A DNA stretch of 64,000 nt from a candidate division WOR-3 bacterium (GTDB taxonomy: Bacteria > Hydrothermota > UBA3073): contig JAUWGP010000003.1 of NCBI GenBank assembly GCA_030606335.1, positions 26,065 through 90,064 of the forward strand. Reading direction: 5' to 3'. Position numbers and translations under genes: made by a program. Positions 2,599-58,839 of this stretch are shown here, in pieces (position 1 is the first letter of the stretch; each line of letters opens with the position of its first letter). Below the pieces are notes generated by a model. The model did not search any database. It was not told the origin of the DNA and saw nothing but the letters and a program-made list of their open reading frames with translations.

Positions 2599-3003
2599 AT
2601 GAAAGAAGGAAGAGGTGGACTTGCAAATATCCTAATAGCAGGAACTTACCTTAAAGGCAACCTGAAAGCCGATGGTGGTGTAAGGATTGATGGCACTGTA
2701 GAGGGAGAGGTCACTGTTAGCGACACATTCGTTTTAGGAAAGACGGGTGTAGTAAAGGGAACAATAAAAACAAAAGATGCTCTAATTGGAGGTAAGGTTA
2801 TAGGTAATATAAAGAGCCAGGGTAAAGTCGAGTTGAAGACTGGTTCTGTTGTAAATGGAGATATAATCTGCAAGAGACTAACTATGGAAGAGGGAGCAAC
2901 ATTTGATGGTTTCTGTAAAATGACAGAAGATAAACCTGATAAAGAAAGAAAAATGGTTACACTGAATCAGAAGGAAGTGGAGAAAGAACCAGCAATTAGA
3001 TAA
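2599..3003 (+). CDS. bactofilin-family cytoskeletal protein
   Basis: Gly/Val-rich beta-helical repeats (GTVEGEVTVSDTFVLGKTGVVKGTIKTKDALIGGKVIGNIKSQGKVELKTGSVVNGDIIC), the DUF583/bactofilin pattern. GGAGG lies 5 nt upstream of the ATG at 2599; the ORF track starts at 2575. Confidence 0.7.
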   Translation: MKEGRGGLANILIAGTYLKGNLKADGGVRIDGTVEGEVTVSDTFVLGKTGVVKGTIKTKDALIGGKVIGNIKSQGKVELKTGSVVNGDIICKRLTMEEGATFDGFCKMTEDKPDKERKMVTLNQKEVEKEPAIR

Positions 3004-3174
3004 TACAATAAACCTATTAGTATATAAAAAATACCTCGACAACTGAAACCTTGTAATCAACAAACCTGATTTTTGTCGAACTAGCAGATATAATTACCAC
3101 AAAGTACACAATTTTGCGTCAACGCTTTTATAATTACATTTAATCAGCTCTTCAATAAATCAGGAGGTAAAATT

Positions 3175-3957
3175 ATGTGCTGGGGATTGGAAAATCGATT
3201 AAGTCGCATATTTCAGAAGGATAATCATACCATTATGCTGGCAGTAGATCATGGATACTTTTTAGGACCAACATCTGGTCTTGAAGTTCCTAAAAAGACC
3301 ATTGAACCACTGATTTCCTTTGCTGATTCCTTAATGCTAACCAGGGGAATACTTCGCACTTCTATATCCTCTGATATACCTGTTCCTATTGTACTTAGGG
3401 TATCGGGTGGAAATAGTATCATTGGTAAAGAACTCTCTGATGAAGACATTACAGTTTCGATGGAAGATGCAATCCGCCTTAATGTCTCTGCGGTGGCACT
3501 CTCAATATATGTTGGAAGTGAATACCAGCACCGCACTATTATTAATCTTTCCAGATTGGTTGATGAAGGTGAAAAATATGGTATTCCAGTCCTGGCTGTA
3601 ACAGCAGTGGGAAGAGAAATGGTTCGTGATTCGAAATATCTTGCCTTATGCTGTCGCATTGCAGCAGAACATGGTGCACACTTTGTTAAGACATACCATT
3701 GTAAAGATTTCAGGAAGGTTGTAGAGAGTTGTCCTGTACCCTTAGTAATAGCAGGTGGTAAAAAGATTCCAGAGAAAGATGCACTACAAGTTGCATTCAA
3801 TGCAATACAAGATGGTGCTTCCGGTGTTGACATGGGGAGAAATATCTTCCAATCAACTCATCCTGTTGCAATGATTAAAGCTGTGCGTGCAATTGTGCAT
3901 AAGAATGCTTCTGTAGACGATGCATACAATATATTCAACGAATTAAAGTCGAAATAG
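3175..3957 (+). CDS. class I aldolase, DhnA family (fructose-bisphosphate aldolase / ADH-synthase like)
   Basis: About 260 aa TIM-barrel aldolase pattern (IMLAVDHG...VLRVSGG...HFVKTY...PLVIAGG); AGGAGG Shine-Dalgarno at 3163-3168. Confidence 0.65.
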   Translation: MCWGLENRLSRIFQKDNHTIMLAVDHGYFLGPTSGLEVPKKTIEPLISFADSLMLTRGILRTSISSDIPVPIVLRVSGGNSIIGKELSDEDITVSMEDAIRLNVSAVALSIYVGSEYQHRTIINLSRLVDEGEKYGIPVLAVTAVGREMVRDSKYLALCCRIAAEHGAHFVKTYHCKDFRKVVESCPVPLVIAGGKKIPEKDALQVAFNAIQDGASGVDMGRNIFQSTHPVAMIKAVRAIVHKNASVDDAYNIFNELKSK

Positions 3958-3975
3958 TATACGATCACTTTATGA

Positions 3976-4217
3976 AATGTGCCTGTCATTGCGAACGAAC
4001 GGTGTGCATGGCAATCTCATCCCTTGTTATCAATTATTTTTGGAGTGCATTACCTTGGTAATGCAATATGGTAATCCAATTTCTTTATCACTATTACATC
4101 TAAATGAGATTGCTTCACCCGTCAATTCGTCGTACTTCTTGACGGACGACGGGCTCGCAATGACAAAAGTGAATGCCTGTCGTTGCGAGTGAACTTAGTG
4201 AGTGCAGTAATCTCATA
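3976..4217. repeat. composite dispersed repeat, copy A ('tgtcattgcgag...ggcaatctcat' family)
   Basis: gtcattgcgaacgaac...ggcaatctcat at 3985-4020, gtgcattaccttggtaatgca at 4045, and gacggacgacgggctcgcaatgacaaaagtgaatgcctgtcgttgcgag...gtaatctcat at 4150-4217. The same modules recur at 20598, 27421-27660 and 57100-57440. Confidence 0.6.
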
Positions 4218-4239
4218 TAGATAAATATCTTCAAAATCA

Positions 4240-4995
4240 CTAATGTCCTGTTGGTAGGTCTATAAACTCGATATCTATACCAAATTTCGTGTTGATATAA
4301 CTACCAAGTGCCTTTATACCAAGCGTTTCAGTAGCATAGTGTCCGGCAAATATACAGTTCATCTTTGCCTCTTTTGCCACCCAGTAAGCACTGTGGCGTG
4401 GTTCACCAGTCACAAAGACATCAAATCCCAAATCAATTGCCTCTCTCAGATAACCAATTCCTCCCCCGCTTATATATCCTATTGTCCTAATTCTATCCTG
4501 ACCAAATCTCCAGGAGATAATCTGTGTTTTAAACTCACTATTTATCTTATCTATCAACTCCTCTATATGGATAGACTGTTCTAATATTATCTCTTTTCCT
4601 AAACTTATTCCACCCTCTATACCAAAACCTATACCTTCCTTCCCACCAAATAACTTCACCGCCTGAGCATTGTTACCAAGTTCATGATGGACATCAAGAG
4701 GTAAGTGACATGAGTATAATCCTATATTGTTATCAAGTAGAAATTTTATTCTCTCATATAGCACTCCTGATATATGAGATGCAACTTCCTTTTTAAAAAG
4801 TCCATGATGAACAAGGAGTAGATTTGCGCCTCTTTTTTTCGTCTCTATAAATGCCTCAAGCGATGCATCAACTGAAAGGGCTATCTTTTCAATATCACCT
4901 TTATTATCTACCAATAATCCATTTACAAGGATATCATTAATCTTATCTACCTGTAGTAGTTGGTTTATTTTTTCTGCCAGTTCTCTTGATTTCAT
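4240..4995 (-). CDS. Nif3-family dinuclear metal-centre protein (GTP cyclohydrolase 1 type 2 homologue)
   Basis: NIF3 hallmarks (LLLVHHG, HLPLDVH, AGHYATE). The start is taken at the internal ATG at 4995, which has a GGGGAGAG Shine-Dalgarno; the longer ORF to 5076 would run into the upstream repeat element. Confidence 0.8.
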   Translation of the reverse strand: MKSRELAEKINQLLQVDKINDILVNGLLVDNKGDIEKIALSVDASLEAFIETKKRGANLLLVHHGLFKKEVASHISGVLYERIKFLLDNNIGLYSCHLPLDVHHELGNNAQAVKLFGGKEGIGFGIEGGISLGKEIILEQSIHIEELIDKINSEFKTQIISWRFGQDRIRTIGYISGGGIGYLREAIDLGFDVFVTGEPRHSAYWVAKEAKMNCIFAGHYATETLGIKALGSYINTKFGIDIEFIDLPTGH

Positions 4996-5425: not shown

Positions 5426-7405
5426 TTACAGTATCCTCTTTTTTACCATAGATTGTAATTTCCTTATTCTATCCCTTACTTTAATTGCCTCCTCAAAATT
5501 TTCCTCATCTGCAAGTTTCCCCATAATTTTTGTCAGTTTGCTTATCATCTCCATACCTTCTATGCCTTCTAAAATTTCATACACCTCTCCTTTTTCTTTT
5601 ATACGTGTATCTGCTATGGATGTGGAGCGGAGAATCTCCTCCTTAGTTTTATATATAGTCTCTGGAGTTATGTTATGTTTCCTGTTATATTCTAATTGTG
5701 CCCTACGTCTTCTCTCCGTCTCTTCTATAGTTTTCATCATAGAACCTGTGATGTTATCAGCATACATTATTACTTCTCCATTCACATTCCTTGCAGCTCT
5801 CCCTGCAGTCTGTATAAGGGATGTATATGAGCGTAAGAATCCTTCGTGATCTGCATCTAGAATAGCAACGAGAGATACCTCGGGTAGATCCAGTCCCTCC
5901 CTTAGTAGATTTATACCAACAAGGCAATCAAATTCTGAAAGCCTTAGATCCCTCAGGATGTCTACCCTCTCTATAGCATTTATCTCAGAGTGTATATACC
6001 TTACTTTTATATCTAATCTTGCAAGATAATCTGTTAATTCCTCTGCCATTCTTTTTGTCAGGGTTGTAACAAGAATCCTCTCCCCCCTTTCCACTCTCCT
6101 TTTTATCTCCTCTAAAAGATCATCTATCTCATTCTTTTTTGGTTTTACAGTAATCTTCGGGTCTTGAATACCTGTTGGTCTTATGATCTGCTCGACAATA
6201 TGGGATGAATTTCTAAATTCAAAATCACCAGGTGTTGCTGAGGTAAAGATTATCTGTGGAACTTTCTCTAAAAACTCATCAAATGTAAGGGGGCGGTTAT
6301 CGAGTGCAGAAGGTAGTCTGAATCCATATTCAACCAGTGTCTCTTTCCTCGAACGGTCACCAAGATACATGCCTATAATTTGAGGGATAGTAACATGAGA
6401 TTCATCAATTATACAGAGAAAGTCGTCAGGAAAGAAATCAAGCAGACAGAACGGTCTCGAGCCTGGCTTCCTTACTGAAAGATGACGCGAATAGTTTTCT
6501 ATACCTGTGCAGTATCCGACCTCTCTAAGTAGTTCTATATCATATTTCGTGCGTCCTTCAAGTCTCTGAGCCTCAAGTAGTTTTCCCTTATCTTTAAAAT
6601 ACTTCAACCTATCCTCCAGTTCCTGCTCTATGTCTTTTATTGCCCTTCCTAATCTCGTGTGGTCTGTAACAAAGTGTCTTGCGGGATAAATATGTACCCA
6701 TTCCCTTTCTTCAATCTTCTTGCCTGTAAGTGGATCAATCATAGATATCTTTTCTACAGTATCACCAAAAAAATCAATTCTAACACCACCCTCCTCATAT
6801 GCCGGACGAACCTCAACCACATCACCCTTTACCCTGAATGTTCCTCGGAGAAAATCAAGGTCATTTCTCGCATAATGGATGTCAACAAGCCCTTTTAACA
6901 GCTTCTTTCTCGAGATTAATTCGTTCTTTTTTACCCTTACCACATGTTTTTTATAATCCTCTGGGGAACCAAGTCCGTATATACAGGATACTGATGCAAC
7001 GATAACTACATCATTTCTCTCAATGAGTGCACTTGTAGCCCGTAGACGTAATTTATCTATTTCGTCGTTTATGGAGGCGTCCTTCTCTATATAGAGATCT
7101 GTTGCAGGTAAATACGCCTCAGGTTGATAATAGTCGTAATAAGAGATAAAATACTCAACCGAGCTGCCCGGGAAAAAACCCCTATATTCGCCGAATAACT
7201 GCGCAGCAAGAGTCTTATTATGAGAGATGACGATTGTGGGTTTATCCACTCTCGCTATAACATTACCCATTGTGAATGTCTTGCCAGAACCAGTTATGCC
7301 CAGAAGTGTCTGGAACTTATAACCCTTATTAATCCCCTCTACAAGCCTATCCACTGCCTGGGGTTGGTCACCAACAAGTGAGAATTTCGATGTTATATTA
7401 AACAT
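5426..7405 (-). CDS. uvrB: excinuclease ABC subunit B
   Basis: 659 aa. Walker A GITGSGKT, helicase motifs and a C-terminal UVR domain ([13 protein letters not shown]); the whole length follows the UvrB pattern. Confidence 0.95.
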
Positions 7406-7410
7406 ATCCT

Positions 7411-7560
7411 CTTCTCTCTTCCCCCTTCGCCTTATTTATCCCGTAGAATGCGTAGCTATTCTATCGGGACGCCCTACGCCCTATACTCCTCTCTTATCGC
7501 AACGAGGACGTTGCTCCTACCATAGATCGTCCGTCAAACGACGGACTCCTACTTTTAATT
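7411..7560. repeat. dispersed hairpin repeat ('cccgtagaatgcg...ctattctatcggg' module plus 'ctcctctcttatcg-hairpin-ctcctacc' module), copy 1
   Basis: About 75 nt are near-identical to 25140-25215, and 7478-7522 parallels 24999-25048 with a different but still self-complementary stem. Confidence 0.5.
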
Positions 7561-7599: not shown

Positions 7600-7990
7600 T
7601 GTTTTCCTCAATAGTCAGTTGTCATTAGTCATTCAATATCCCCAACATTAAACATTAAACATTTCACATACAACATGTATCATTTAACCAATTAACTTTT
7701 CAACTAATTAATTCGTGTGTTTATTGAGTTTATTGAGTTTGTTGTGTTCATTGAGTTTTTTTAGTTGATTTGGTTTATTTAGTTCGTTTAGTTGATTTAG
7801 TTGTTATATATAATAACCAATAACCATTAACTAATAACATTTAACATTAAACATTTAACATTTACTACTCCACTGATAACCGATAACCTAATTAACTAAT
7901 CAACCAATTAACCAATCAACTATTCCTTCTATCGCGACTGGGAAGTCGCTCCTACCTTATGCCATCTGATACATTTAACATTCAACATTT
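7600..7990. repeat. AT-rich low-complexity degenerate tandem repeats
   Basis: Runs of taaacatt/acatttaacatt, tattgagttt and ttagttgattt units. The ttgagtt motif recurs at 24700-24760. Confidence 0.5.
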
Positions 7991-20812: not shown

Positions 20813-21859
20813 ATGTTTAAACCAAAATTCACAATCACCAATAAAATAAACAATTTCCTTCTTGAAATTGAGAGGGCAAGAGGATTTTTGGAGGCGGCAA
20901 AGTTAAAGGAGGCATGGATAAAGGATATGCAAAGTGAAGCACTTATCCTTGAAGCGCACCACTCTACACATATTGAAGGAACTCAACTGACCTTATCCCA
21001 GGCTCAAAGAATTCTTACCGGCAAATCTGTAAAGGGCATTAGGAAAGATGATCGTCAAGAACTCCTGAACTATAAAGAGGCAACTGATTTTGTCTCCGAA
21101 TACCTGGGGAAGAAATTAGAAATCACGGAGGATTTAATTAAGCAGATACACAAGATTTTAGTTAAAGATGTCAGGGGTGGAACCCTTGAGCCAGGAAGAT
21201 ATAGAAAAGTTCAGAATTATGTAGTCAACTCCTTGACAAGAGCAATAATTTATATTCCGCCCCCTCCAGAGGAAGTTCCTAAACTAATGAAAGAATTCGT
21301 TGAATGGTTAAACGTAAAAAAGAAGATATCACCTGTGCTCATGGCAGGGATCAGTCAATATCAGTTTGTTGACATTCATCCCTTCTTAGATGGAAACGGA
21401 AGGACTGCTCGTGTTTTATGTACGCTCATTCTTTATCAGAATGAATATGATTTTAAAAGGCTTTTTTCATTGTCCGAATATTACGACAAAAAACGCCGGA
21501 GGTACTACGACGCCATTCAATCAGTGAGAGAGAATAATATAGATATGACAGAATGGCTCGAATATTTTACAGAAGGACTGAAAAATCAATTGATAGAAGT
21601 AAAAACAAAGGGAGAAAAGGCAATTAAAAAGGAAGTTCTCATTGAGAAGGCTAAAAGATTTAACTTAAACGAGCGTCAACAGAAAATTTTATTACATTTA
21701 TTGGAGCAAAAGCGGATTTCGGTTGAGGAAATCAGACAGAAATATAATTTGGTTAGAAGAACGATTCAACGTGATTTCTCAAAATTGGTTGAGTTAGGTC
21801 TAATAAAGGAAATAGCAAAAAGCAAGACAGACCCTACAAGGTATTATGAATTACTGTGA
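20813..21859 (+). CDS. fic: Fic/DOC family protein (AMPylator-type) with C-terminal winged-helix domain
   Basis: Canonical Fic motif HPFLDGNGRTARVL; 348 aa. Confidence 0.9.
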   Translation: MFKPKFTITNKINNFLLEIERARGFLEAAKLKEAWIKDMQSEALILEAHHSTHIEGTQLTLSQAQRILTGKSVKGIRKDDRQELLNYKEATDFVSEYLGKKLEITEDLIKQIHKILVKDVRGGTLEPGRYRKVQNYVVNSLTRAIIYIPPPPEEVPKLMKEFVEWLNVKKKISPVLMAGISQYQFVDIHPFLDGNGRTARVLCTLILYQNEYDFKRLFSLSEYYDKKRRRYYDAIQSVRENNIDMTEWLEYFTEGLKNQLIEVKTKGEKAIKKEVLIEKAKRFNLNERQQKILLHLLEQKRISVEEIRQKYNLVRRTIQRDFSKLVELGLIKEIAKSKTDPTRYYELL

Positions 21860-21903
21860 CATTTTACTGCGACAATACTGTGACATTTACTGTGACATAA
21901 TTA
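21857..21903. repeat. 4 tandem CTGTGACAT units (12-13 nt period)
   Basis: ctgtgacatttta ctgcgacaata ctgtgacattta ctgtgacataatt immediately after the fic stop. The core GTGACAT is the reverse complement of the ATGTCAC array at 15528-15700. Confidence 0.5.
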
Positions 21904-21973
21904 TTGAGGTCGGGAGACCTCTCCCACAAAGTTTGTATTGGGAGAAATGGGGGTCAGGCTAATGGAGAAATGG

Positions 21974-22142
21974 GGGTCAGGCTAAGAGATAAGAAATAGA
22001 AAATAATCTCACTACTTTGCCACGAAATATCAGATGATAAAAATCTCCTTCATATTCTATCCTCAGTTTCCTGGCATATTTTTATTTTACTATAACTTTC
22101 CCTCTATCTCAAGCAATTATCTCTTATCTTTTAGCCTGACCC
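21974..22142. repeat. about 170 bp MITE-like element, copy 1 (24-nt terminal inverted repeats gggtcaggctaagagataagaaat / atctcttatcttttagcctgaccc)
   Basis: The TIRs are perfect reverse complements over about 20 nt. The interior is near-identical to 24808-24978. A partial extra TIR copy sits at 21942-21964. Confidence 0.6.
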
Positions 22143-22161
22143 ACAATACCACTCTAAAATT

Positions 22162-24702
22162 ATGTTTAGATTATATAGACTAATCCTATTCACAGTCATC
22201 TCATCCTCCCTGTTTGGCAGGGCATTATCATTAGAAGAGGCAAAGGTATGCAACCCTGAGATTAAGAGGTTGATTGAATGTGCAAGTGGAGATGAAAAAG
22301 AGTGGGTGGATTTGCTTCTTCAATATATGCCAACCATTGACCTTGTAACCCTGAAAGCCGATTCTTTTCTTCTTGATTTTAAAGCCCTACAAATTAATCT
22401 TGATTCACTTCCCTGGGTAAAGGAAATACCTCAAGAATTTTTCGACCACTATGTTCTTCCATATCGGGTGTCACAAGAGCCATTGGAGTATTTTCGACTC
22501 CATTATGGAAGAGAGCTCTTCGAACGTGTTCGAGATTGTTCTGACTTAAAGAGTGCAGTACTTTCAGTAAATGAATGGGCTTATGAACAGATGAAATATG
22601 AACCAACATCCAGATGGGACCAATCTGCAGGTCAGACTATTAGACGAGGCATTGGGCGGTGTGAAGAAATGGCTATACTCTTTATTAAGGCATGCAGGTC
22701 AGTAGGTATTCCAACCAGAATGGTATCTTCACCCTGGTGGCCATTTACTAACTCGAATCATGCATGGGTTGAAGTCTGGACACAAGACGGATGGCATTAT
22801 CTTGGAGGTGCTGAGATGACTGCATTAGATAATACCTGGTTTAGAAAGGCAGTCAGAAGAACAGCAATCATAAAAGGTGTTACGTGGGGAGAATTTACTA
22901 AATCAAAAAAGATGGTATATTATAAAGGAGATGAATATACAGTTCTCAATCTAACATCTAACTATAGTGATACAACAGGTCTATCTATAACTGTAATGGA
23001 TACTGATGGAGCACCTGTAGAAAGTGCAGATGTCTGGATATCTGTCTTCAACTACTCATCTCTCCGTTCTGTTGCACATAAATATACCGACAAATCAGGA
23101 AAAACTCATCTGGTAGTTGGAAAGTGTGACCTATTTATTTCCTGTGGGAAGGACTCACTCTGGGATTATGATATACTGCGATTTTCAGAAGGTAATACAA
23201 CAAGCAATATCTCCCTCTTAATCGAGAAGATTTCGATACCAGATACATCCTTCTGGTTCAGGGTAAAGGATAAAGATGATGTTCCAGGAGATACGACCTA
23301 TAAGCCTCCAGAGCTATCCTATGTTCTTCATGACCTCCATCAGGAACAGGTAACCGCTGTAGACCCTGAGATTCTGAAAGAATTACCAGATACATCTTTA
23401 GAATATCGTCTTTTAAAAAACCTGAATCGCTCTCGTGGAAATCGAGAAACATTGATGAACTTCTGGAGAAAGTATGAGGAGGAACCTGAGCTTTTATTAT
23501 CCTTATGGGATGTTATGCACACAAAGGACCTCGTTGCGGTTGACAGCAGCACCATGCAGAAAATTATAGATTTGTCAAAGGATAGGCGAGAGTATTTTGA
23601 CAACTATGAGTACCCGGATTCACTATTCTTCAAATATGTTGCAAATCCAAGGATTCTATGGGAGGATTTTTATAAAGGTTCTGTATTGTTTAAGAATCCA
23701 TTCTTAGAACTCATAAGTAAAAAGCCAAATGAGATTGCAAATTATGTGGTGAGATATATCCAGAAAGAAATAGATACTCTAAGTGATAAGAACTATTTTG
23801 GTGGAAAGATGAATCCTTATCAAACACTTGCCGCAGAAACAGGCAGCTCAATTGAGAGACTGACCCTCTTTGTAGAAGCGATGAGGTCGGTTGGAATACC
23901 TGCACGCATATACTGGGATTATAAAAGTGCAGAATACTATGATGACAATTGGGTATCAGTTAAATTTGATACAACAGTAGAGATAGAAACCCAGGAGACA
24001 GTGATAGCTGCAAGATTCATACAAAATGGTGAAACACGAATAGATGTTAGATACTATTATGATTTTTCAATATGCCAGATTGAGGATGGAGTATTTAAAG
24101 ACATTACCCCCCCAATGGATACATCAATGGGTATTGTCTCCTTTACGGTTCCTACTGGAGAGTATTGCTTTATTACAGGTTTTCGTCAGGCAAAGGGAGA
24201 TGTCTTTGTCAGGGTTAATCCAGTTAAGACAGAGGAAGATACAGTGAAAATTACGGTAGAATTGGGGTTCCCGCCAATAAATGCAATCGGTTCATTTGAC
24301 TTACTCATAAGGGACTTCAAAGAACTTTCTGATATTTCTATTAGGGATACAGATGGTAATGTTCTCTCTCAGTCCGATTGGCAGAATGGTAATATTATTA
24401 TTGCTTTCCTTGACCCTGAGAAGGAAAGTTCAATATCAACTACCAAAAGACTTGCACTGATTAACGATATTCCTTTTTTGATTTTTATAAAGACTGATAA
24501 GAGGGATAACGCATTACATTTTTGTGTTGAAAATAAACTTGAGGGCAGGATCTTTTATGGTGACGAGGAAAAATTAAAAGAGATATTGAAATTCCATGAA
24601 CTCCCTTCAATTCTATTCCTACGGTATGGAAAGGCAATACTCTGGACAGAGGGTTTAAATCTTGAGATTGCAATTATGATAAGGCAAATAAAAGACAATT
24701 GA
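22162..24702 (+). CDS. secreted transglutaminase-like cysteine-protease-fold protein (two TGase-like cores, the second degenerate)
   Basis: Signal peptide. Core 1 has GRCEEMAILFIKACRSVGIPTRMV ... HAWVEVW ... DGWHYLGGAE (Cys-His-Asp). Core 2 has GSSIERLTLFVEAMRSVGIPARIYWDY (Cys replaced by Ser). Confidence 0.7.
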   Translation: MFRLYRLILFTVISSSLFGRALSLEEAKVCNPEIKRLIECASGDEKEWVDLLLQYMPTIDLVTLKADSFLLDFKALQINLDSLPWVKEIPQEFFDHYVLPYRVSQEPLEYFRLHYGRELFERVRDCSDLKSAVLSVNEWAYEQMKYEPTSRWDQSAGQTIRRGIGRCEEMAILFIKACRSVGIPTRMVSSPWWPFTNSNHAWVEVWTQDGWHYLGGAEMTALDNTWFRKAVRRTAIIKGVTWGEFTKSKKMVYYKGDEYTVLNLTSNYSDTTGLSITVMDTDGAPVESADVWISVFNYSSLRSVAHKYTDKSGKTHLVVGKCDLFISCGKDSLWDYDILRFSEGNTTSNISLLIEKISIPDTSFWFRVKDKDDVPGDTTYKPPELSYVLHDLHQEQVTAVDPEILKELPDTSLEYRLLKNLNRSRGNRETLMNFWRKYEEEPELLLSLWDVMHTKDLVAVDSSTMQKIIDLSKDRREYFDNYEYPDSLFFKYVANPRILWEDFYKGSVLFKNPFLELISKKPNEIANYVVRYIQKEIDTLSDKNYFGGKMNPYQTLAAETGSSIERLTLFVEAMRSVGIPARIYWDYKSAEYYDDNWVSVKFDTTVEIETQETVIAARFIQNGETRIDVRYYYDFSICQIEDGVFKDITPPMDTSMGIVSFTVPTGEYCFITGFRQAKGDVFVRVNPVKTEEDTVKITVELGFPPINAIGSFDLLIRDFKELSDISIRDTDGNVLSQSDWQNGNIIIAFLDPEKESSISTTKRLALINDIPFLIFIKTDKRDNALHFCVENKLEGRIFYGDEEKLKEILKFHELPSILFLRYGKAILWTEGLNLEIAIMIRQIKDN

Positions 24703-24807
24703 GTTTCTTGAGTTTTCACAGTTTATTGAGTTTCTTGAGTTATTGGGTTTGTTGGGTCTTAGGGTAGTACTTAAGGGGGTCAAGAAATGGGGGTCATCAA
24801 GAAATGG

Positions 24808-24978
24808 GGGTCAGGCTAAAAGATAAGAGATAGAATATAGTCTCACTCCTATTGCCACGAGATATCAAATGATAAAAATCTCCTTCATATTCTATCCTCA
24901 GTTTCCTGGGCATATTTTCGTTTTACTTTAACTTTCCCTCTGTCTCAAGCAATTATCTCTTATCTTTTAGCCTGACCC
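24808..24978. repeat. about 170 bp MITE-like element, copy 2 (same orientation as copy 1)
   Basis: gggtcaggctaaaagataagagat ... atctcttatcttttagcctgaccc, with an interior matching copy 1. Confidence 0.6.
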
Positions 24979-24998
24979 GCAATATTCCCGCAATATTA

Positions 24999-25262
24999 CG
25001 CCCTACGCTCCTCTCTTATCGCCCCGCCAAAGGCGGGGCTCCTACCTTTTTTCTTTTCTCCTAAGTTATTCTAAATTGCTAATTGCTAATTTTGCATTGA
25101 TAATTGACTTCACCTTCTCTATTCCCTCTTTCCTCATCTCTCTTCCCCCTTCGTTTTATTTATCCCGTAGAATGCGCAGCTATTCTATCGGGACGCTCTA
25201 CGCCCTTCGCCTTACGCTCTACGCCTTACGCCCTACGCCCTTCCCTCATCACTCTTCCGTCT
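24999..25262. repeat. dispersed hairpin repeat, copy 2, plus cttacgcc/ctacgcc microsatellite
   Basis: acgccctacgctcctctcttatcgCCCCGCCaaaGGCGGGGctcctacc, tctcttcccccttcgttttatttatcccgtagaatgcgcagctattctatcgggacgc, and (c)ttacgcc x6. Confidence 0.5.
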
Positions 25263-27420: not shown

Positions 27421-27660
27421 CTTGTCGTATATTCTCTCTATTGTAATGAGATTGCCACGCTCCTGTTAGTCGCTCGCAATGACAAATAAGTCATTAAATG
27501 GTAGGCGTAGACTTTATGCCTGCGAAGGAACGAATGAGATTGCTGCGCTCACTTCGTTCGCTCGCAATGACCGGGGTTGGTATCTGTCATTGCGAGGAGT
27601 CCGTCGTCCGTCAAGAAGTGCGACGGATTGACGGACAACGAAGCAATCTTATCACTTAGA
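27421..27660. repeat. composite dispersed repeat ('cattgcgag' family), copy C
   Basis: gagattgccacgc...gtcgctcgcaatgac, gaacgaatgagattgctgcgctcacttcgttcgctcgcaatgacc, gtcattgcgaggagtccgtcgtccgtcaagaagtgcgacggattgacggacaacgaagcaatc. Inverted relative to copy A. Confidence 0.6.
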
Positions 27661-45179: not shown

Positions 45180-46619
45180 TTATTTCATATAATCCTTTGT
45201 ATTTCTTAGTAGGAATATGGAGATGCCATTGCATTCCTTTATCTTTTCATAGCCCATTTCTCTTAATCTAAAAAACTCTAAGTCTTCATCATCAATTACA
45301 TCTACTATTAACCGGGGTTTATAACGTTGTAAAAGATTAGGGATATCTTCATAGGTAATAAGGTGATATCTCTCCCTTAATCTTGGAGCCACATTCTCAC
45401 TTACGTCATAGTTCGGTATCGCAAACTCAGGAACAGTTTCTCTGTCTGCCAGAAATCCAAAATAGAATCCAAAGGAAACTACCTTGTCATCCTTTTCTGT
45501 AACTGCTTCAATAGCCCTGGTTACATCTCTTATATTTGAAATTATATATTTCTTCTGCCATTCTCTTACATTAGAGAAATACATAAGAGAGCACGGAATG
45601 TAGGATGTTATGTATAAGATAAGAAGCCATTTGCTCCATGTTTTTCTTTTTAGATAACCAATATATGGTACAAGTAAGAATAAAAGAAATGGATAAATCT
45701 CTGTCATATAGCCGAAATGCGTAGGAGTAAGTATGAAATAGTATACTATAAAAAGAACTACAGCACAAATTAATGCCAACAATTCCTCTCTTCTCATTTT
45801 TCTCCACTTAATAGCTATTGCAAGTAGTATAAAAAGCACAATATTTGATGGAAAAAAGACAACCTTGGCAAGAATTAGGAATCTGTGGGTTATAAACCAA
45901 TAAAATGAAGGGGTAGTTCTGTTGAAATGATATAAAAAGTTACAGAAAAGAAAACAATCCGTATATTTAAAAAAATAATACAATGATGGAATAATACCAA
46001 GAACAAAACCAGCAACTGTATAAAGTATCATCTTCCACTCTCGCCTAAAGAGAAGAAGAATAATCGTAATAATAAGTAATACAATAAATATTGAGCGAAA
46101 ACTCACTGAAAGACCAATACAAATACCAGAAAGCAAAGAATATATACACCTTCTTCTCTTCAGGGAAAAGGAAAATAAAATAAGAAATAGAATATTTAAT
46201 AAATTCACCCAGGCTCTTTGTGTTGCCTGGATGGAGTTGTAGAAAAGCACTGCGTTACCTGTCCAGAGTATACCCATATAAACGGTCTCCTTCTTAGACT
46301 TATTAATATAAAATGTATATAGAAGGAGGATAACACCTGAGATAAGAGCAATAAGGGAAGATGATATTCTGGCGAGAAAGAAATTAGACCAACCACCACC
46401 AGAAAAAGGCAGAAAGACTAAAGCTGAGAGCGGCATCTGAGGGAAGAAAAAATCTTTATATAAGTGCATTCCTCTCGATATTAGTCTTGCTGCGGGAAAA
46501 TAATAGCTCAATTCATCTGTGAAAACATTTTGTATAAAGACAAGAGCAATAAGAATACTACCACTTATAATACAGTATAATATAATAAATTTGGATATGC
46601 TATTTCTACTTTGTTTCAT
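45180..46619 (-). CDS. GT-C-like polytopic membrane glycosyltransferase, paralogue 1
   Basis: 479 aa. TDELSYY acidic motif after TM1. About 85% identical to the 46901-48331 product. Confidence 0.5.
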   Translation of the reverse strand: MKQSRNSISKFIILYCIISGSILIALVFIQNVFTDELSYYFPAARLISRGMHLYKDFFFPQMPLSALVFLPFSGGGWSNFFLARISSSLIALISGVILLLYTFYINKSKKETVYMGILWTGNAVLFYNSIQATQRAWVNLLNILFLILFSFSLKRRRCIYSLLSGICIGLSVSFRSIFIVLLIITIILLLFRREWKMILYTVAGFVLGIIPSLYYFFKYTDCFLFCNFLYHFNRTTPSFYWFITHRFLILAKVVFFPSNIVLFILLAIAIKWRKMRREELLALICAVVLFIVYYFILTPTHFGYMTEIYPFLLFLLVPYIGYLKRKTWSKWLLILYITSYIPCSLMYFSNVREWQKKYIISNIRDVTRAIEAVTEKDDKVVSFGFYFGFLADRETVPEFAIPNYDVSENVAPRLRERYHLITYEDIPNLLQRYKPRLIVDVIDDEDLEFFRLREMGYEKIKECNGISIFLLRNTKDYMK

Positions 46620-46900: not shown

Positions 46901-48331
46901 TCAATCACCAACTAATAAAAGCGATATACCCCTGTAATCTCCTATTTTCTTATAACCTAATTCCTTTAACTTAAAGTATTCTAATTCTGTCTTATCAATC
47001 ACATTTACTATTAGCCTGGGTCTATAGCGTTGTAAAAGCTGCGGGATGTCCTCATAAGTAGTAAGATGATACCTTTCCCTCTGTTTTGGACTTATATCCT
47101 CGCTTATGTCGTGAAGATAAAAAGCAAGTTCTGAAACAGTTTTTCTTTTCGCCAGAAATCCAAAATAGAATCCAAAGGAAACTACCTTATCATCCTTTTC
47201 TGTAACTGTTTCAATAGCCCTGGTTACATCTCTTATATTTGAAATTGAATGCCCCTTTTGCCAATCTCTGATGTTAAAGGAATACATTAAAGAGCACGGT
47301 ATATATGATGCAATATAGACAATTAGAAGCCATTTACTCCATGTTTTTCTTCTTAGATAACAGATATAGGGTACAAGTAAGAATAAAAGAAATGGGTAGA
47401 CCTCAGTCATATAACCGAAATGTGTAGGGGTAAGTAAGAAATAGTAAACTATAAAAAGGACTGCAGCACAAATTAATGCTAACAATTCCTCTCTTTTTAT
47501 TTTTCTCCACTTAACAGCTATTGAAAGTAATATAAAAAGCACAATATTTGATGGAAAAAAGATAACCTTGGAAAGAATTAGAAATCTGTGGGTTACAAAC
47601 CAATAAAATGAAGGGGTAGTCCTATTAAAATGATATAACAAATTACAGAAAATAAAATTATCCGGATATTTAAAAAAGTAATATAATGAAGGAATGACAC
47701 CAAGAACAAAACCAGCAACTGTATATAGTATCATTTTCCACTCTCGCTTAAAGAGAAGAAGAACAATCGCAATGATTAACAGTATTACAAATATTGAGCG
47801 AAAACTCACTGAAAGACCAATACAAACTCCAGAAAGTAAAGAATATATACATTTTCTTCTCTTTAAGGAAAGGGAAAATAAAATAAGAAACAGAATATTC
47901 AGTAAATTCACCCAGGCTCTTTGTGTTGCCTGGATGGAGTTGTAGAAAAGCACTGCGTTACCACTCCACAGGACACCAATATAAATAGTATCTCTCTTAG
48001 ATTTATTAATATGAAAGGTATATAGAAGAAGGATAACACCTGATATAAGTGTAAGTATGGAAGAAGATACTCTGGCGAGAAAGAAATTTGTCCATCCACC
48101 ATTTGAAAAAGGCAGAAAGACTAAAGCTGAGAGTGGCATTTGATTAAAGAAAAAATCTTTATATAATTTCTTTCCTATTGCTATTAAAGATGCTGCAGGA
48201 ATATAAGTACTTAATTCATCCGTATAAACATTTTGAGTAAAGATAAGAGCGACAAGAATACCTCCACTTATGATGCAGAATAATATGATAATTTTAAATA
48301 TGCTATCCTGACTTCGCCTCATGAAAACCAT
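46901..48331 (-). CDS. GT-C-like polytopic membrane glycosyltransferase, paralogue 2
   Basis: 476 aa, collinear with paralogue 1; even the antisense ORF shadows match (46205-46399 and 47908-48102). Confidence 0.5.
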   Translation of the reverse strand: MVFMRRSQDSIFKIIILFCIISGGILVALIFTQNVYTDELSTYIPAASLIAIGKKLYKDFFFNQMPLSALVFLPFSNGGWTNFFLARVSSSILTLISGVILLLYTFHINKSKRDTIYIGVLWSGNAVLFYNSIQATQRAWVNLLNILFLILFSLSLKRRKCIYSLLSGVCIGLSVSFRSIFVILLIIAIVLLLFKREWKMILYTVAGFVLGVIPSLYYFFKYPDNFIFCNLLYHFNRTTPSFYWFVTHRFLILSKVIFFPSNIVLFILLSIAVKWRKIKREELLALICAAVLFIVYYFLLTPTHFGYMTEVYPFLLFLLVPYICYLRRKTWSKWLLIVYIASYIPCSLMYSFNIRDWQKGHSISNIRDVTRAIETVTEKDDKVVSFGFYFGFLAKRKTVSELAFYLHDISEDISPKQRERYHLTTYEDIPQLLQRYRPRLIVNVIDKTELEYFKLKELGYKKIGDYRGISLLLVGD

Positions 48332-53987: not shown

Positions 53988-54079
53988 AATAAAAAATTAG
54001 TTATTGGTTTACCCTGCCTGCCATATTTAATGTTTCACTTTATTACATTATGGCTTGTCCTGTAGCACAGTGTACAGGG

Positions 54080-54165
54080 TGAAATGCGAACTTGTGAGCT
54101 ATTTCATCAGGGTCATTAGTTTACCCTATGAAATGTGAACTCGTGAGCTATTTCATTGGGGTCAT
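54080..54165. repeat. tandem about 49-bp duplication, each unit carrying an ATGAAAT/ATTTCAT hairpin
   Basis: gtgaaatgcgaacttgtgagctatttcatcagggtcattagtttaccct followed by atgaaatgtgaactcgtgagctatttcattggggtcattgggctattcc. Confidence 0.5.
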
Positions 54166-55097
54166 TGGGCTATTCCCAACCTCCTTGGTAAATACATGGC
54201 AGCAAGGTCCACTGTTCTCTGACAGTTTAACCAACATCGATTACATCGGGTAAATGAACGAATCGCTTCTTTTGTCTTTCTATCTCTCCATATCTGTCCG
54301 AAACTTCTCTTATGTAGATTACCAAGCTTTATTTTCCTTGCCTCACACAGTTCAACATCACCATTTGGTTTTATTACCGGTCTAACATATATACTAAGGC
54401 AGGGAAGGTTTAACCTCCTATTTGCCCATAGAGAATAAAGGCTGTAATAATCTGAAGTAAACATATCCGATACATCATAGAGTTCTAATACTTCTCTTTC
54501 TATACCGAAATATTCAACAAAAGAGAAGTATCCAACACTGAGTCCAATATTGTGACTTTTGGTAAAATCAAGTACAAACTCCAAGTCCTCTTTTGTGTTC
54601 CATTTACTTATTGTATATTCAATCTCAATACTGCTGAACTCCTTAATTTCATCAACAATTTTCTCGACGTTCCTAAATGTATCTATACCCCTTATATACT
54701 TGTTGGTTTCAGGTTTTCCATCAAGTGAAACTGAGACATATTTCACCTTTTCGTCCTTTACAAGCGAAATCAGTTCATCTACTAAGATTCCGTTCGAAAA
54801 AACCCTTATATTTTTCCCTCTGAAAAGGGATACAATCTCTCTGCATTCAGGATGAAGGAGAAAATCACCACCTGTGATAATAAATTCCATATCATCTCCA
54901 ATTTCATCATCCGCTAATAGCATTTCAATTATAGACTTATCCAGGTCAATTTTTTCTACCATTCTCCATATATTACAGGTCCTACATCTCGATGTACATC
55001 TATTAGTTATATATATAGGCATGGAGAGAATTCGTCTTCTCCTTATCGAATAAATAAGCCTTGAGAGATTAAACGCTTTATTAAAAAATCTATCCAT
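54162..55097 (-). CDS. radical SAM enzyme with C-terminal SPASM/twitch-like Cys cluster
   Basis: CTSRCRTC (CxxxCxxC) near the N-terminus. C-terminal CEARK...CNRCWLNC cysteine cluster. The start may be the internal ATG at 55022. Confidence 0.75.
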   Translation of the reverse strand: MDRFFNKAFNLSRLIYSIRRRRILSMPIYITNRCTSRCRTCNIWRMVEKIDLDKSIIEMLLADDEIGDDMEFIITGGDFLLHPECREIVSLFRGKNIRVFSNGILVDELISLVKDEKVKYVSVSLDGKPETNKYIRGIDTFRNVEKIVDEIKEFSSIEIEYTISKWNTKEDLEFVLDFTKSHNIGLSVGYFSFVEYFGIEREVLELYDVSDMFTSDYYSLYSLWANRRLNLPCLSIYVRPVIKPNGDVELCEARKIKLGNLHKRSFGQIWRDRKTKEAIRSFTRCNRCWLNCQRTVDLAAMYLPRRLGIAQ

Positions 55098-57099: not shown

Positions 57100-57440
57100 T
57101 GTTATTGCGAGTTAATTCCATCCTGGCTGGTGTCTTGTTAACTAACTTAGTTCACCTTTTTTCTTTGTCAAGATGCTATGGTAGTATCAGGTTCCTACCT
57201 ACGATTATGAGTCACAACGAGCCTGTCTACCGTCAGGTAGATAGGTTGCTCCAACCTCCAAAGGATACATTATTTTATAGAACACTAACTGTCATTGCGA
57301 GACTGAACGAAGTGAAGTCGTGGCAATCTCATCCTTTACTTCTAATATCTAAATGCGATTGCTTCACCTATGGTTCGCAATGACAAAAGTGAATGCCTGT
57401 CATTGCGAGCGAACAAAGTGAGCGTGGCAATCTCATTCTT
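57100..57440. repeat. composite dispersed repeat ('cattgcgag' family), copy D
   Basis: gttattgcgag..., tgtcattgcgagactgaacgaagtgaagtcgtggcaatctcat, gattgcttcacc...ttcgcaatgacaaaagtgaatgcctgtcattgcgagcgaacaaagtgagcgtggcaatctcat. The 94-aa ORF here is repeat-derived. Confidence 0.6.
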
Positions 57441-58839
57441 TATTACCTAAAACAACCCTTATATCCTCTTTTGTTATCCCCTTCATAATATAGAGTAAAA
57501 ATGTATATATAACTGCACCAATAAACACAAGCAGAATAACATTTAACGACCTCAAGAAGTAAAGAATGGCACACATTATTGCTGAAGCAAAAATCGGCTT
57601 TCCAAAAAATGTAAACAACCTAAACTTCACTACTCTATGAAAAACACGATACATAAGGTAGAACATAATTAACTCAGCACATATAGTTGCTAAAGCCGCT
57701 CCTATTATACCAAGTCTTGGTATCATAATCACATTCAGAATTATATTCGACACAGTGCCTGTCACCATTGCTACTGCATATCTCTTCTCCTGTCCTGTGC
57801 CAATTAACCCCTGTGTGTATATACTTCCTATCGTAGTAATTGCCAGGGTCCATATAAGTATCTGGAGGACTGGAGTTGAGGATGTGTAACCTTGTCCAAA
57901 TATAAACCTTATGATGGGCATTGCAAGCAAGGTCCCTCCGGCACATATTGGAATAACTACAGTTATAACTGCCCTGGCAGCCATAGAGAGTATCTCCTCA
58001 AGTTTCTTAATCGATTCCTTATAATATCTCGAAATAAGGGGAAGTATAACCATTGAAAAAACCCTATCCACAAGTAGAAGAAACATTAGAAGTTTATAGG
58101 CAACAGTATAAAGACCAACATCCGTTGTGCCTCTTATAAATCCAAGCATAGTAATATCGAAGTTAAAATATATCTGAGTCATCACAGTTCCTATTCCTAT
58201 AGGTAGGGCATGTTTCAATATTTCCCAGGTTCTGATTTCCAATCTCGGACCAACGACCTTCAGCTCACTTCTTCTTCGCACCATTAAACCGAGATATAGA
58301 GCCGCCACTGCACTTCCAGTAAACCAGAGAATCGGTACAAGATATATATTACCCGTACTTCTGACAAATAAAAGCACCAGAAATAGATACGAACCATATG
58401 ACATTATCATTGATGTACCTATGTTTCTCATCTCCTCGATTCCTCGGAAAAACCACTCAAGGGATAATGCGTATGGAAAGACAGAAAGGCAATAGAGGAT
58501 TATAAGCAGCCTCATATCCATCATGCCTTTGATAAGGAAGGTTAATATTGTAATAATTGTAAAGGCGGTTGCTGCAAGTAAAAATTTTAAGGGAATTATT
58601 TTAGTTATGTAGTCTTTTGAAAGGAGGGGTGCCTTTGCAATCTCTCTTGTGCCAATAGTTGATAAACCGAGGTCAGTAAAAATGAGTGCATAACCGAGGA
58701 ATGTGAAGGCAAAACTTAATGCGCCAAATCCTGCGACTCCCAGCACTCTCGCAAGCCAGATTGTAGCAAAAAAACCCAGGAGACGAGATAAAACATCTCC
58801 AGAGAATACAAATAGAATGTTCTTTGCAATTCTTCTCAC
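57433..58839 (-). CDS. MOP-superfamily polysaccharide/oligosaccharide flippase (Wzx-like)
   Basis: About 12-14 TM helices; N-terminus KNILFVFSGDVLSRLLGFFATIWLARVLGVAGFGALSFAF is the Polysacc_synt pattern. Confidence 0.75.
   Translation of the reverse strand: MRRIAKNILFVFSGDVLSRLLGFFATIWLARVLGVAGFGALSFAFTFLGYALIFTDLGLSTIGTREIAKAPLLSKDYITKIIPLKFLLAATAFTIITILTFLIKGMMDMRLLIILYCLSVFPYALSLEWFFRGIEEMRNIGTSMIMSYGSYLFLVLLFVRSTGNIYLVPILWFTGSAVAALYLGLMVRRRSELKVVGPRLEIRTWEILKHALPIGIGTVMTQIYFNFDITMLGFIRGTTDVGLYTVAYKLLMFLLLVDRVFSMVILPLISRYYKESIKKLEEILSMAARAVITVVIPICAGGTLLAMPIIRFIFGQGYTSSTPVLQILIWTLAITTIGSIYTQGLIGTGQEKRYAVAMVTGTVSNIILNVIMIPRLGIIGAALATICAELIMFYLMYRVFHRVVKFRLFTFFGKPIFASAIMCAILYFLRSLNVILLVFIGAVIYTFLLYIMKGITKEDIRVVLGNKE

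Follow-up and report, generated by a model that had tools for sequence, protein, structure and literature searches.

The window analysed here is a stretch of 64,000 nucleotides from a candidate division WOR-3 bacterium (contig JAUWGP010000003.1). It carries two short repeats, copies A and B, one on each side of a gene for a transglutaminase-like protein. These repeats are very probably non-autonomous miniature elements, derived by internal deletion from a 1.03-kb transposon with terminal inverted repeats (TIRs) and mobilised in trans by the Y1 tyrosine transposase that the full element encodes. We give this reading a probability of about 0.8. The parent resembles the units named TIRtrons. According to Di Nocera et al. 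(2013, PMC3733652), a TIRtron holds a gene of the REP-associated tyrosine transposase (RAYT) type, where REP stands for repetitive extragenic palindromic, flanked by TIRs. Such a gene is called TIRYT, and many of the TIRs share GGGGWSAS.

Copy A extends over 21964-22149 and copy B over about 24797-24985, both on the plus strand. These limits follow the family homology, which in copy A includes the outer conserved GGAGAAAT. The copies lie in direct orientation and are 93% identical over ~180 nt, with identical runs of up to ~36-40 nt. Each is bounded by TIRs of 25-28 nt that start with GGGGTCAGGCTAA (arm sequence TGGGGGTCAGGCTAAAAGATAAGAGATA). The arms of copy A lie at 21971-21998 and 22118-22145, with 25 of 28 nt complementary (89%). 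Those of copy B, at 24805-24832 and 24954-24981, are complementary at 27 of 28 nt (96%). Searching the window with a 21-nt TIR pattern and up to three mismatches returned these four arms only, and shuffled sequence gave 0 matches. Likewise, an nhmmer profile of the family found no third copy in the 64 kb. The first-pass annotation had described a directly oriented pair around the transglutaminase-like gene, similar to miniature inverted-repeat transposable elements (MITEs). Both members are present where it placed them, at ~180 bp each. Their MITE-like character also holds, since they are short, non-coding, TIR-bounded and multi-copy, and contain no transposase gene.

The evidence for the parent comes from the metagenome-assembled genome (MAG) "candidate division WOR-3 bacterium RS_17_14" (JAGMCL01). 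One of its loci, L017, is orthologous to the window locus and about 93% identical to it. Alignments at 89-95% cover hsdM, the intergenic segment that follows the Fic gene, copy A together with the entire transglutaminase-like gene, and PEPCK, so the MAG comes from a sister species or strain. Another locus of this sister genome, L021, holds an intact element of 1029 bp (5732-6760) with the same TIRs (26-28 nt). It encloses a single open reading frame of 306 aa on the minus strand. The translation matches Pfam Y1_Tnp at 1.1e-16 (61.5 bits against a cut-off of 23), and it shows an HUH motif (NHIHLL) and a tyrosine motif (RYIHLNP). Its match to Bac_DnaA_C (3e-7, 30.8 bits) falls just below the Pfam cut-off of 31.5. 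A phmmer search against PDB found DnaA domain IV in 2z4r (2.7e-4) and no solved Y1 relative at the sequence level. The best NCBIfam model is the REP-associated tyrosine transposase (REP_Tyr_transpos), and the IS200 model gives a weak match, 18.7 bits where the cut-off is 55. Homologs number more than 7,500. Most of them have the same two domains (precomputed PF08299), and many are named "REP element-mobilizing transposase RayT". A perfect TTGACA-17-TATAAT promoter lies immediately inside the gene-proximal TIR of the element, with the ATG 6 nt later; judged from this spacing, the transposase mRNA is probably leaderless. The cognate transposase that the first-pass annotation thought might lie elsewhere is thus present in the sister genome, and it is a RAYT-like HUH/Y1 enzyme of the TIRYT type, not a DDE enzyme. 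A tblastn search with the L021 protein found no TIRYT gene in the window.

All the arms start with (G)GGGGTCAG, which fits GGGGWSAS. The family of the L021 element shows a Y1 transposase, TIRs that are not REPs, and a C-terminal helix-turn-helix of the Bac_DnaA_C type. According to Quentin et al. (2018, PMC6006769), most TIRYTs fall in TnpA_REP subclass 2.1, and subgroup 2.1.2 has a C-terminal domain of the Bac_DnaA_C-like/helix-turn-helix kind. A single TIR arm has a self-folding energy of 0 kcal/mol. It shows no self-complementarity and no GTAG. Without a palindrome of their own, the arms count as TIRs, and we rejected REP palindromes for this reason. An integron attC-like cassette boundary, considered in view of direct copies around single genes, was also rejected: there are no attC-type core sites, transposase remnants lie inside the elements, and an autonomous partner exists.

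A four-way alignment relates the miniatures to this parent. The window copies match both ends of the L021 element across one deletion junction, which lies within a TCTATATT microhomology. At the gene-proximal end the miniature retains ~150 bp, which contain the TIR, the promoter of the transposase gene and its codons 1-27, up to ...GAGTCTATATT. At the gene-distal end it retains the last 34 bp. The same junction occurs in every ~180-bp copy. Therefore, one deletion product has spread, which implies mobilisation in trans. Other deletion derivatives were found by tblastn, with different parts of the transposase retained: residues 183-306 in L019, 1-51 and 229-260 in L022, 4-45 in L003, and 1-20 and 256-306 in L015.

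The remnants of the transposase gene are still recognizable in the window. In copy A, the promoter scan places the former transposase promoter at 22112-22084 on the minus strand (TTGAGA-17-TAAAAT, 10/12). The start codon and N-terminal codons follow at 22075-22019 on the same strand, where tblastn shows a frameshift. In copy B, the promoter and codons occupy 24833-24948 on the minus strand (tblastn, and alignment to the ends of the autonomous element). The promoter is degenerate (TTGAGA-17-TAAAAC, 24948-24920), and codons 1-27 (24913-24833) keep 81% amino acid identity to the intact gene (E = 1e-8, tblastn).

To follow the family beyond the window, we scanned one genome per species with the TIR pattern GGGTCAGGCTAARAGATAAG. 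The scan gave 24 loci, 15 in JAGMCL01 and the remainder in a few other MAGs. BLAST with copy B in JAGMCL01 returned 11 full-length copies of ~180 bp, with 77-93% identity to the window copies. In total, the sister MAG holds at least 12 miniature copies. The first-pass annotation had considered that only two copies might exist, as a simple local duplication; the dispersed copies and the autonomous partner do not agree with this. The same scan of metagenome contigs yielded 3 loci only and was uninformative, with one chance match, apparently not related to the element, also in a Saccharibacteria MAG. Viral contigs gave 0 loci and no phage link.

The 12-copy alignment has sharp boundaries common to the copies, and the two ends of the element are asymmetric. 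On the left, ~8 conserved nt (RGGAAAT) precede GGGGGTCAGG, and these occur outside the left TIR only. On the right, homology stops just past CCTGACCC(C). Five copies in JAGMCL01 form a subfamily with 93-97% mutual identity, which indicates a recent amplification. The copies are also clustered: L002 has two at a distance of 2.8 kb, L009 has three in a span of 3.2 kb, and the window has two. Random placement of 12 copies in a genome of an assumed 2-3 Mb would give an estimated 0.2 or so pairs at such short distances. Neighbouring copies are close kin, with 93% identity between A and B and 95% between the two copies of L002. The orientation is that of the neighbouring genes in 12 of the 13 copies, or at 7 of the 8 independent loci.

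The rival that concerns the enzyme itself supposes a classical MITE. Here, an unrelated cut-and-paste DDE transposase encoded elsewhere would recognise the TIRs, and the Y1 gene would only be carried along. DDE elements have such TIRs as a hallmark, long, perfect and not palindromic on their own, and PMC3733652 gives no biochemical proof that a TIRYT moves TIR-bounded DNA. However, we found no target-site duplication. At every pair of boundary offsets, any common repeat of 3 nt or more was confined to a minority of the 12 copies. The lack of a duplication suits a Y1 enzyme better than one of the DDE type. Moreover, the Y1 gene is the sole open reading frame between the identical TIRs. In another WOR-3 genome, a Y1 homolog (63% identity) is enclosed by TIRs that share the GGGGTCAGGCTA start, so TIR and Y1 gene have stayed together. 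Finally, GGGGWSAS is a published feature of the TIRs around TIRYT genes (PMC3733652, PMC6006769). A DDE origin is therefore very unlikely.

The genomic position of the transposase gene may also separate it from a common insertion sequence. In the sister MAG, only one of the TIR-bearing loci has an intact transposase gene. It lies between GAPDH and L32-EF-G. The homolog with 63% identity, in the WOR-3 genome JGI_Cruoil_03_44_89, has the same GAPDH ... L32-EF-G neighbourhood and orientation, and this synteny suggests vertical inheritance. Its TIRs (TGGGGTCAGGCTACAAGATAC) conserve the first 12-13 nt, and the rest has diverged along with the protein. A closer homolog (96% identity) occurs on a 2-kb metagenome contig (L028) with the same GAPDH-side flank and with TIRs at 890 and 1922. 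TIRs surround homologous genes in L029 and L030 as well. Provisionally, the gene appears to be a single-copy, vertically inherited, RAYT-like TIRYT, as seen in two lineages and in MAGs that are incomplete. As a separate observation, the distant WOR-3 genome with locus L030 has a second, solo TIR 17 nt past the gene-distal TIR (2211-2275). This matches the published "dimer" arrangement of TIR families.

Several points weigh against the derivation from a TIRYT element and its mobilisation in trans. The NCBIfam RAYT model scores 60.7 bits, short of its cut-off of 80. The link between the window and a TIRYT rests on the sister genome and on the 96%-identical TIRYT from another metagenome sample. 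The orientation bias depends on 8 independent loci, 7 versus 1. The L017 site without copy B is not a clean empty site, as the surrounding filler differs too. An identity of 93% versus 95% over ~180 positions does not resolve the order of events. Transposition by a TIRYT has never been shown experimentally, and both PMC3733652 and PMC6006769 ask for tests of it. The single-strand Y1 mechanism proposed below is carried over from the biochemistry of RAYT and IS200/IS605.

The gene between the copies encodes 846 aa (22162-24702, plus strand), with a Pfam Transglut_core match of 3.8e-30 in two stretches and a hydrophobic N-terminus, judged by eye. Its nucleotide identity to the L017 ortholog is 93%. 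In L017 the gene is syntenic, between the restriction-modification (RM)/Fic region and PEPCK, and it has the upstream copy only. This argues against a composite mobilisation. Thus, the proposal of the first-pass annotation that the pair could mobilise the intervening 2.6 kb is contradicted: the same gene sits in the same place with one copy. The transglutaminase-like gene is resident in the chromosome and not a cargo; that it is bracketed is incidental.

The rival that this comparison largely refutes would make the copy pair and the gene a composite or cassette-like mobile unit. It has some appeal, given that at three loci (the window, L002 and L009) a likely secreted or surface protein is encoded by a single gene between direct copies, in a pair or a triplet. 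In L002, the bracketed gene encodes an Exo_endo_phos protein with a tail of the type IX secretion system. However, the bracketed genes are mutually unrelated, and miniatures survive in intergenic DNA only; local hopping would by itself give such bracketing. We consider a composite unit extremely unlikely.

The two copies differ in their history. Copy A is 95% identical to L017 4397-4579, at the same site upstream of the same gene. Because it is orthologous in both genomes, it is older than their split, and its presence is compatible with expression. To its left, L017 has an extra gene for a FadL/Toluene_X-like outer-membrane protein (2966-4396; 407 aa, 1.4 kb), which directly adjoins the left end of the element. 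The matching segment of the window (21941-21966) has just a 23-nt partial duplicate of the end. The boundary of this indel is the end of the element, which suggests a rearrangement tied to that end.

In copy B, the left TIR lies ~100 nt past the stop codon of the transglutaminase-like gene. Copy B is missing from the orthologous intergenic region of L017, where a different filler occupies the site. Because the flanking filler of L017 also differs, an insertion and a loss of copy B are indistinguishable here, and the boundaries of an insertion are unreadable. In another rival, copy B arose by ectopic recombination, gene conversion or patchwork repair, with no transposase, and both window copies are immobile fossils. 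The intergenic region of copy B is a mosaic that differs from L017 beyond the element. The intergenic regions here are full of other short repeat modules, and the promoter and coding remnants are degenerate in both window copies. On the other hand, the family has spread to dispersed, unlinked sites with the same junction and sharp ends. The 93-97% subfamily of the sister genome speaks of recent activity, and the homology of copy B ends at the boundaries common to every copy. Such an origin of copy B is improbable.

A terminator-like hairpin follows copy B at 25021-25057 on the plus strand. Read from the sequence, it consists of GCCCCGCC-AAA-GGCGGGGC, then TCCTACC and a T-run. It escaped the terminator scan, as the T-run begins 7 nt after the stem. 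L017 has a hairpin at the equivalent position with the same TCCTACCTTTT tail. The hairpin is part of the surroundings and not of the copy B element. Since copy B sits between the stop codon and this hairpin with its T-run, it probably belongs to the 3' untranslated region (UTR) of the transglutaminase-like gene.

On the upstream side, 16 nt separate the right TIR of copy A from the ATG, and the family homology stops 12 nt before it. The first-pass annotation had held that this copy must supply the promoter of the gene or sit within it. The sequence does not establish this, and the gene may be transcribed from inside copy A or by read-through. The strongest promoter in copy A is the former transposase promoter, which lies on the minus strand and is directed away from the gene. 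Toward the gene there is only a weak plus-strand match (TTGCCA-16-AAAAAT, 9/12, 22017-22044). It is conserved in copy A, in copy B and in the L017 copy. Over the region, promoter matches number 17, against 11.6 ± 3.5 in shuffles, with no clear excess.

These features bear on the idea that the copies are retained for the use of the host. They could act as REP-like hairpins that end or stabilise upstream mRNA, or copy A could serve as promoter or 5' UTR. REP elements stabilise upstream mRNA. Most miniatures have their left end 12-110 nt beyond the stop codon of an upstream gene in the same orientation. When copy B is folded as RNA, its two TIRs pair into a long stem of -59.3 kcal/mol (z = -7.1). 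In addition, copy A is kept 6-13 nt upstream of the start codon in the window and in the sister genome, and the plus-strand match is conserved in the three copies named above. Against this use, copy B is dispensable in the sister genome, and the conservation across copies is fairly even, not focused on a functional motif. The promoter match toward the gene is weak, in a region where such matches do not clearly exceed those in shuffles. Retention for host use is compatible with the derivation from the TIRYT element, and we regard it as rather unlikely. No known small RNA, riboswitch or tRNA-derived element was found in the whole window (Rfam gathering thresholds; ARAGORN).

The first-pass annotation had also seen a possible deletion between the two copies. 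Homologous recombination between A and B, with loss of the gene, is possible in principle, because their identical runs reach ~36-40 nt; no such deletion was observed. A short-read assembly contig of 2615 bp (L032, Logan contig SRR14876847_172936) carries the exact transglutaminase-like gene. It breaks off inside copy A on one side; on the other it runs ~25 nt beyond the stop codon and stops short of copy B. The break within copy A hints at a repeated element in that sample. Among the exact-protein matches, which are short Logan contigs only (2.6 kb; for PEPCK, 2.3 kb), no allele without the gene was found.

We propose the following mechanism for the derivation and movement of the miniatures. 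The single-copy, vertically inherited TIRYT gene would mobilise the miniature in trans, as RAYTs do with REPINs. In single-stranded DNA, the two TIRs of the miniature would pair into a stem of ~28 bp. As DNA, the whole element is predicted to form one long hairpin of -24.3 kcal/mol (z = -4.6). The Y1 enzyme would then cut and rejoin single strands near the GGGGTCAG ends. Reinsertion would leave no target-site duplication and would often be local. The short loop of the miniature may make it a better substrate than the 1-kb parent. Copy A is old and predates the split of the sister species. Under this scheme, copy B, the closest relative of A and unshared, would most likely be a 2.8-kb local hop into the 3' UTR, or it may have been lost in the sister lineage. 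As side effects, transcripts that cross the copies would contain a very stable hairpin, and the pair would offer a substrate for rare recombinational deletion of the gene.

The ends of the elements show a further feature, overlooked in the first-pass annotation, that may relate to cutting. Truncated tandem duplicates occur at five ends: copies A and B of the window, the third copy of L009 (~7940-7961), L003 (~1177-1195) and L015 (~4911-4930; the same element as L026). Each joins 6-10 nt of flank to the beginning of the TIR, of which 8-9 nt are present (14-15 nt for copy A). At the left end of copy A there is one 23-nt unit, GGAGAAATGGGGGTCAGGCTAAT (21941-21963, plus strand), which is not present at the orthologous L017 site. 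At the left end of copy B there are two (24775-24796, plus strand), arranged as GGGGGTCA-AGAAAT-GGGGGTCA. The unit GGGGGTCA thus stands at 24775-24782 and again at 24789-24796, with AGAAAT-type spacers. The break follows GGGGTCA(G) in 4 of the 5 ends. From the base composition, ~0.1 such duplicates would be expected among ~45 ends, against the five observed. They may mark a nicking site, or slippage or stalling of the polymerase at the base of the hairpin. A broader proposal would combine these observations. WOR-3 would host a TIRYT-driven, REPIN-like system in which a syntenic, vertically inherited, leaderless Y1 gene maintains deletion-derived miniatures whose origin is still visible in their promoter and 27 codons, and the end duplicates would be footprints of the Y1 cut. 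We hold this combined proposal only tentatively, as less likely than not.

Other repeats were observed in the window. A 76-nt repeat (93% identity) occurs at 7407-7482 and 25131-25206. It contains a GTAG-bearing imperfect palindrome, CCCGTAGAATGCG[T/C]AGCTATTCTATCGGG, with the look of a classical REP. Heptamer arrays of the (C/T)TACGCC type lie after it at 25193-25250, and also at 24996-25018. Arrays of a 9-nt unit (TTGAGTTTA/C) are found at 7712-7793 and 24696-24750; the stop codon of the transglutaminase-like gene lies within the second, which L017 conserves. Directly after the Fic-helix-turn-helix gene, at 21855-21925 (L017 2880-2925), there are three ACTGTGACAT-type repeats and a GAGGTC-GGGA-GACCTC hairpin. 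They are 89% conserved in the sister genome, though the Fic gene there is a divergent allele. A hairpin-based intergenic family, GCTCGCAATGAC...GTCATTGCGAG with AATGAGATTGCCACGC-type flanks, occupies 4119-4216, 27445-27634 and 57305-57441 in both orientations. Tandem paralogs lie on the minus strand at 45180-46619 (479 aa) and 46901-48331 (476 aa), with 85% identity over 300 nt and repeated upstream segments. Finally, a 49-nt unit is present twice in tandem (82% identity) at 54069-54166, immediately past the stop codon of the gene at 54162-55097 on the minus strand.

The analysis explains a conspicuous repeat pair as a probable miniature derivative of a tyrosine-transposase element, and it identifies the gene that likely mobilises it. 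For the annotation of the window, the gene is resident, the downstream copy varies between sister species, and the promoter of the element is directed away from the gene. For the study of RAYTs and REPINs, the sister genome offers a natural series: an intact element, several deletion derivatives that arose independently, and a single miniature family that was amplified. The finding would also extend the little-studied TIRYT/TIRtron class to an uncultured phylum. If a TIRYT-driven REPIN-like system exists here, it would be a direct "missing link" for the origin of REPIN-type populations from a transposase locus. If the end duplicates are Y1 footprints, the cleavage site of a TIRYT could be predicted from sequence alone.

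Among the known systems, classical DDE-derived MITEs, such as the Correia elements of Neisseria, likewise occur between genes as short, non-coding, TIR-bounded elements in multiple copies, and transcripts of neighbouring genes often include them as stable hairpins. They make target-site duplications and depend on DDE transposases. In contrast, no target-site duplication is seen here, and the autonomous partner encodes a Y1 enzyme. With the IS200/IS605 family, the elements share an HUH/Y1 transposase (Y1_Tnp), the lack of a target-site duplication, asymmetric ends and a possible strand or orientation bias. That family has subterminal hairpins and a multi-copy gene, whereas TIRs and an apparently single-copy, syntenic gene are found here.

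The likeness to REPIN-RAYT systems (Bertels and Rainey 2011, PMC3116915; Bertels et al. 2017, PMC5581495) lies in a Y1 gene, provisionally single-copy and vertically inherited, flanked by the repeat of a dispersed, hairpin-forming population. Likewise, there is no target-site duplication, and the copies are intergenic. In contrast, the arms here are no REP palindromes and have no GTAG tag, and the spacer of ~120 nt originates in the transposase gene. Copies number in the tens instead of the hundreds, and the protein has an extra DnaA-like domain.

The closest match is the TIRtron/TIRYT class of subgroup 2.1.2. It shares a RAYT-like HUH/Y1 protein with a Bac_DnaA_C-like helix-turn-helix, and long TIRs in place of REP palindromes. 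The TIRs start with the GGGGWSAS-type GGGGTCAG. According to PMC3733652, some TIRYT TIRs are also moderately abundant repeat families, found as singles, dimers and clusters, and the TIRs described here behave in the same way, being moderately abundant and sometimes clustered. By its sequence features the element belongs to this class, which is known and little studied; WOR-3 is not among the phyla covered in the parts of the two surveys considered (PMC3733652, PMC6006769). Unlike a TIRtron, the window carries miniatures alone, with no transposase gene. And unlike the published TIRYT repeats, which in the same parts of these sources are single, dimeric or grouped TIRs, the repeat here is a defined deletion derivative of ~180 bp that keeps the promoter and 27 codons of its parent.

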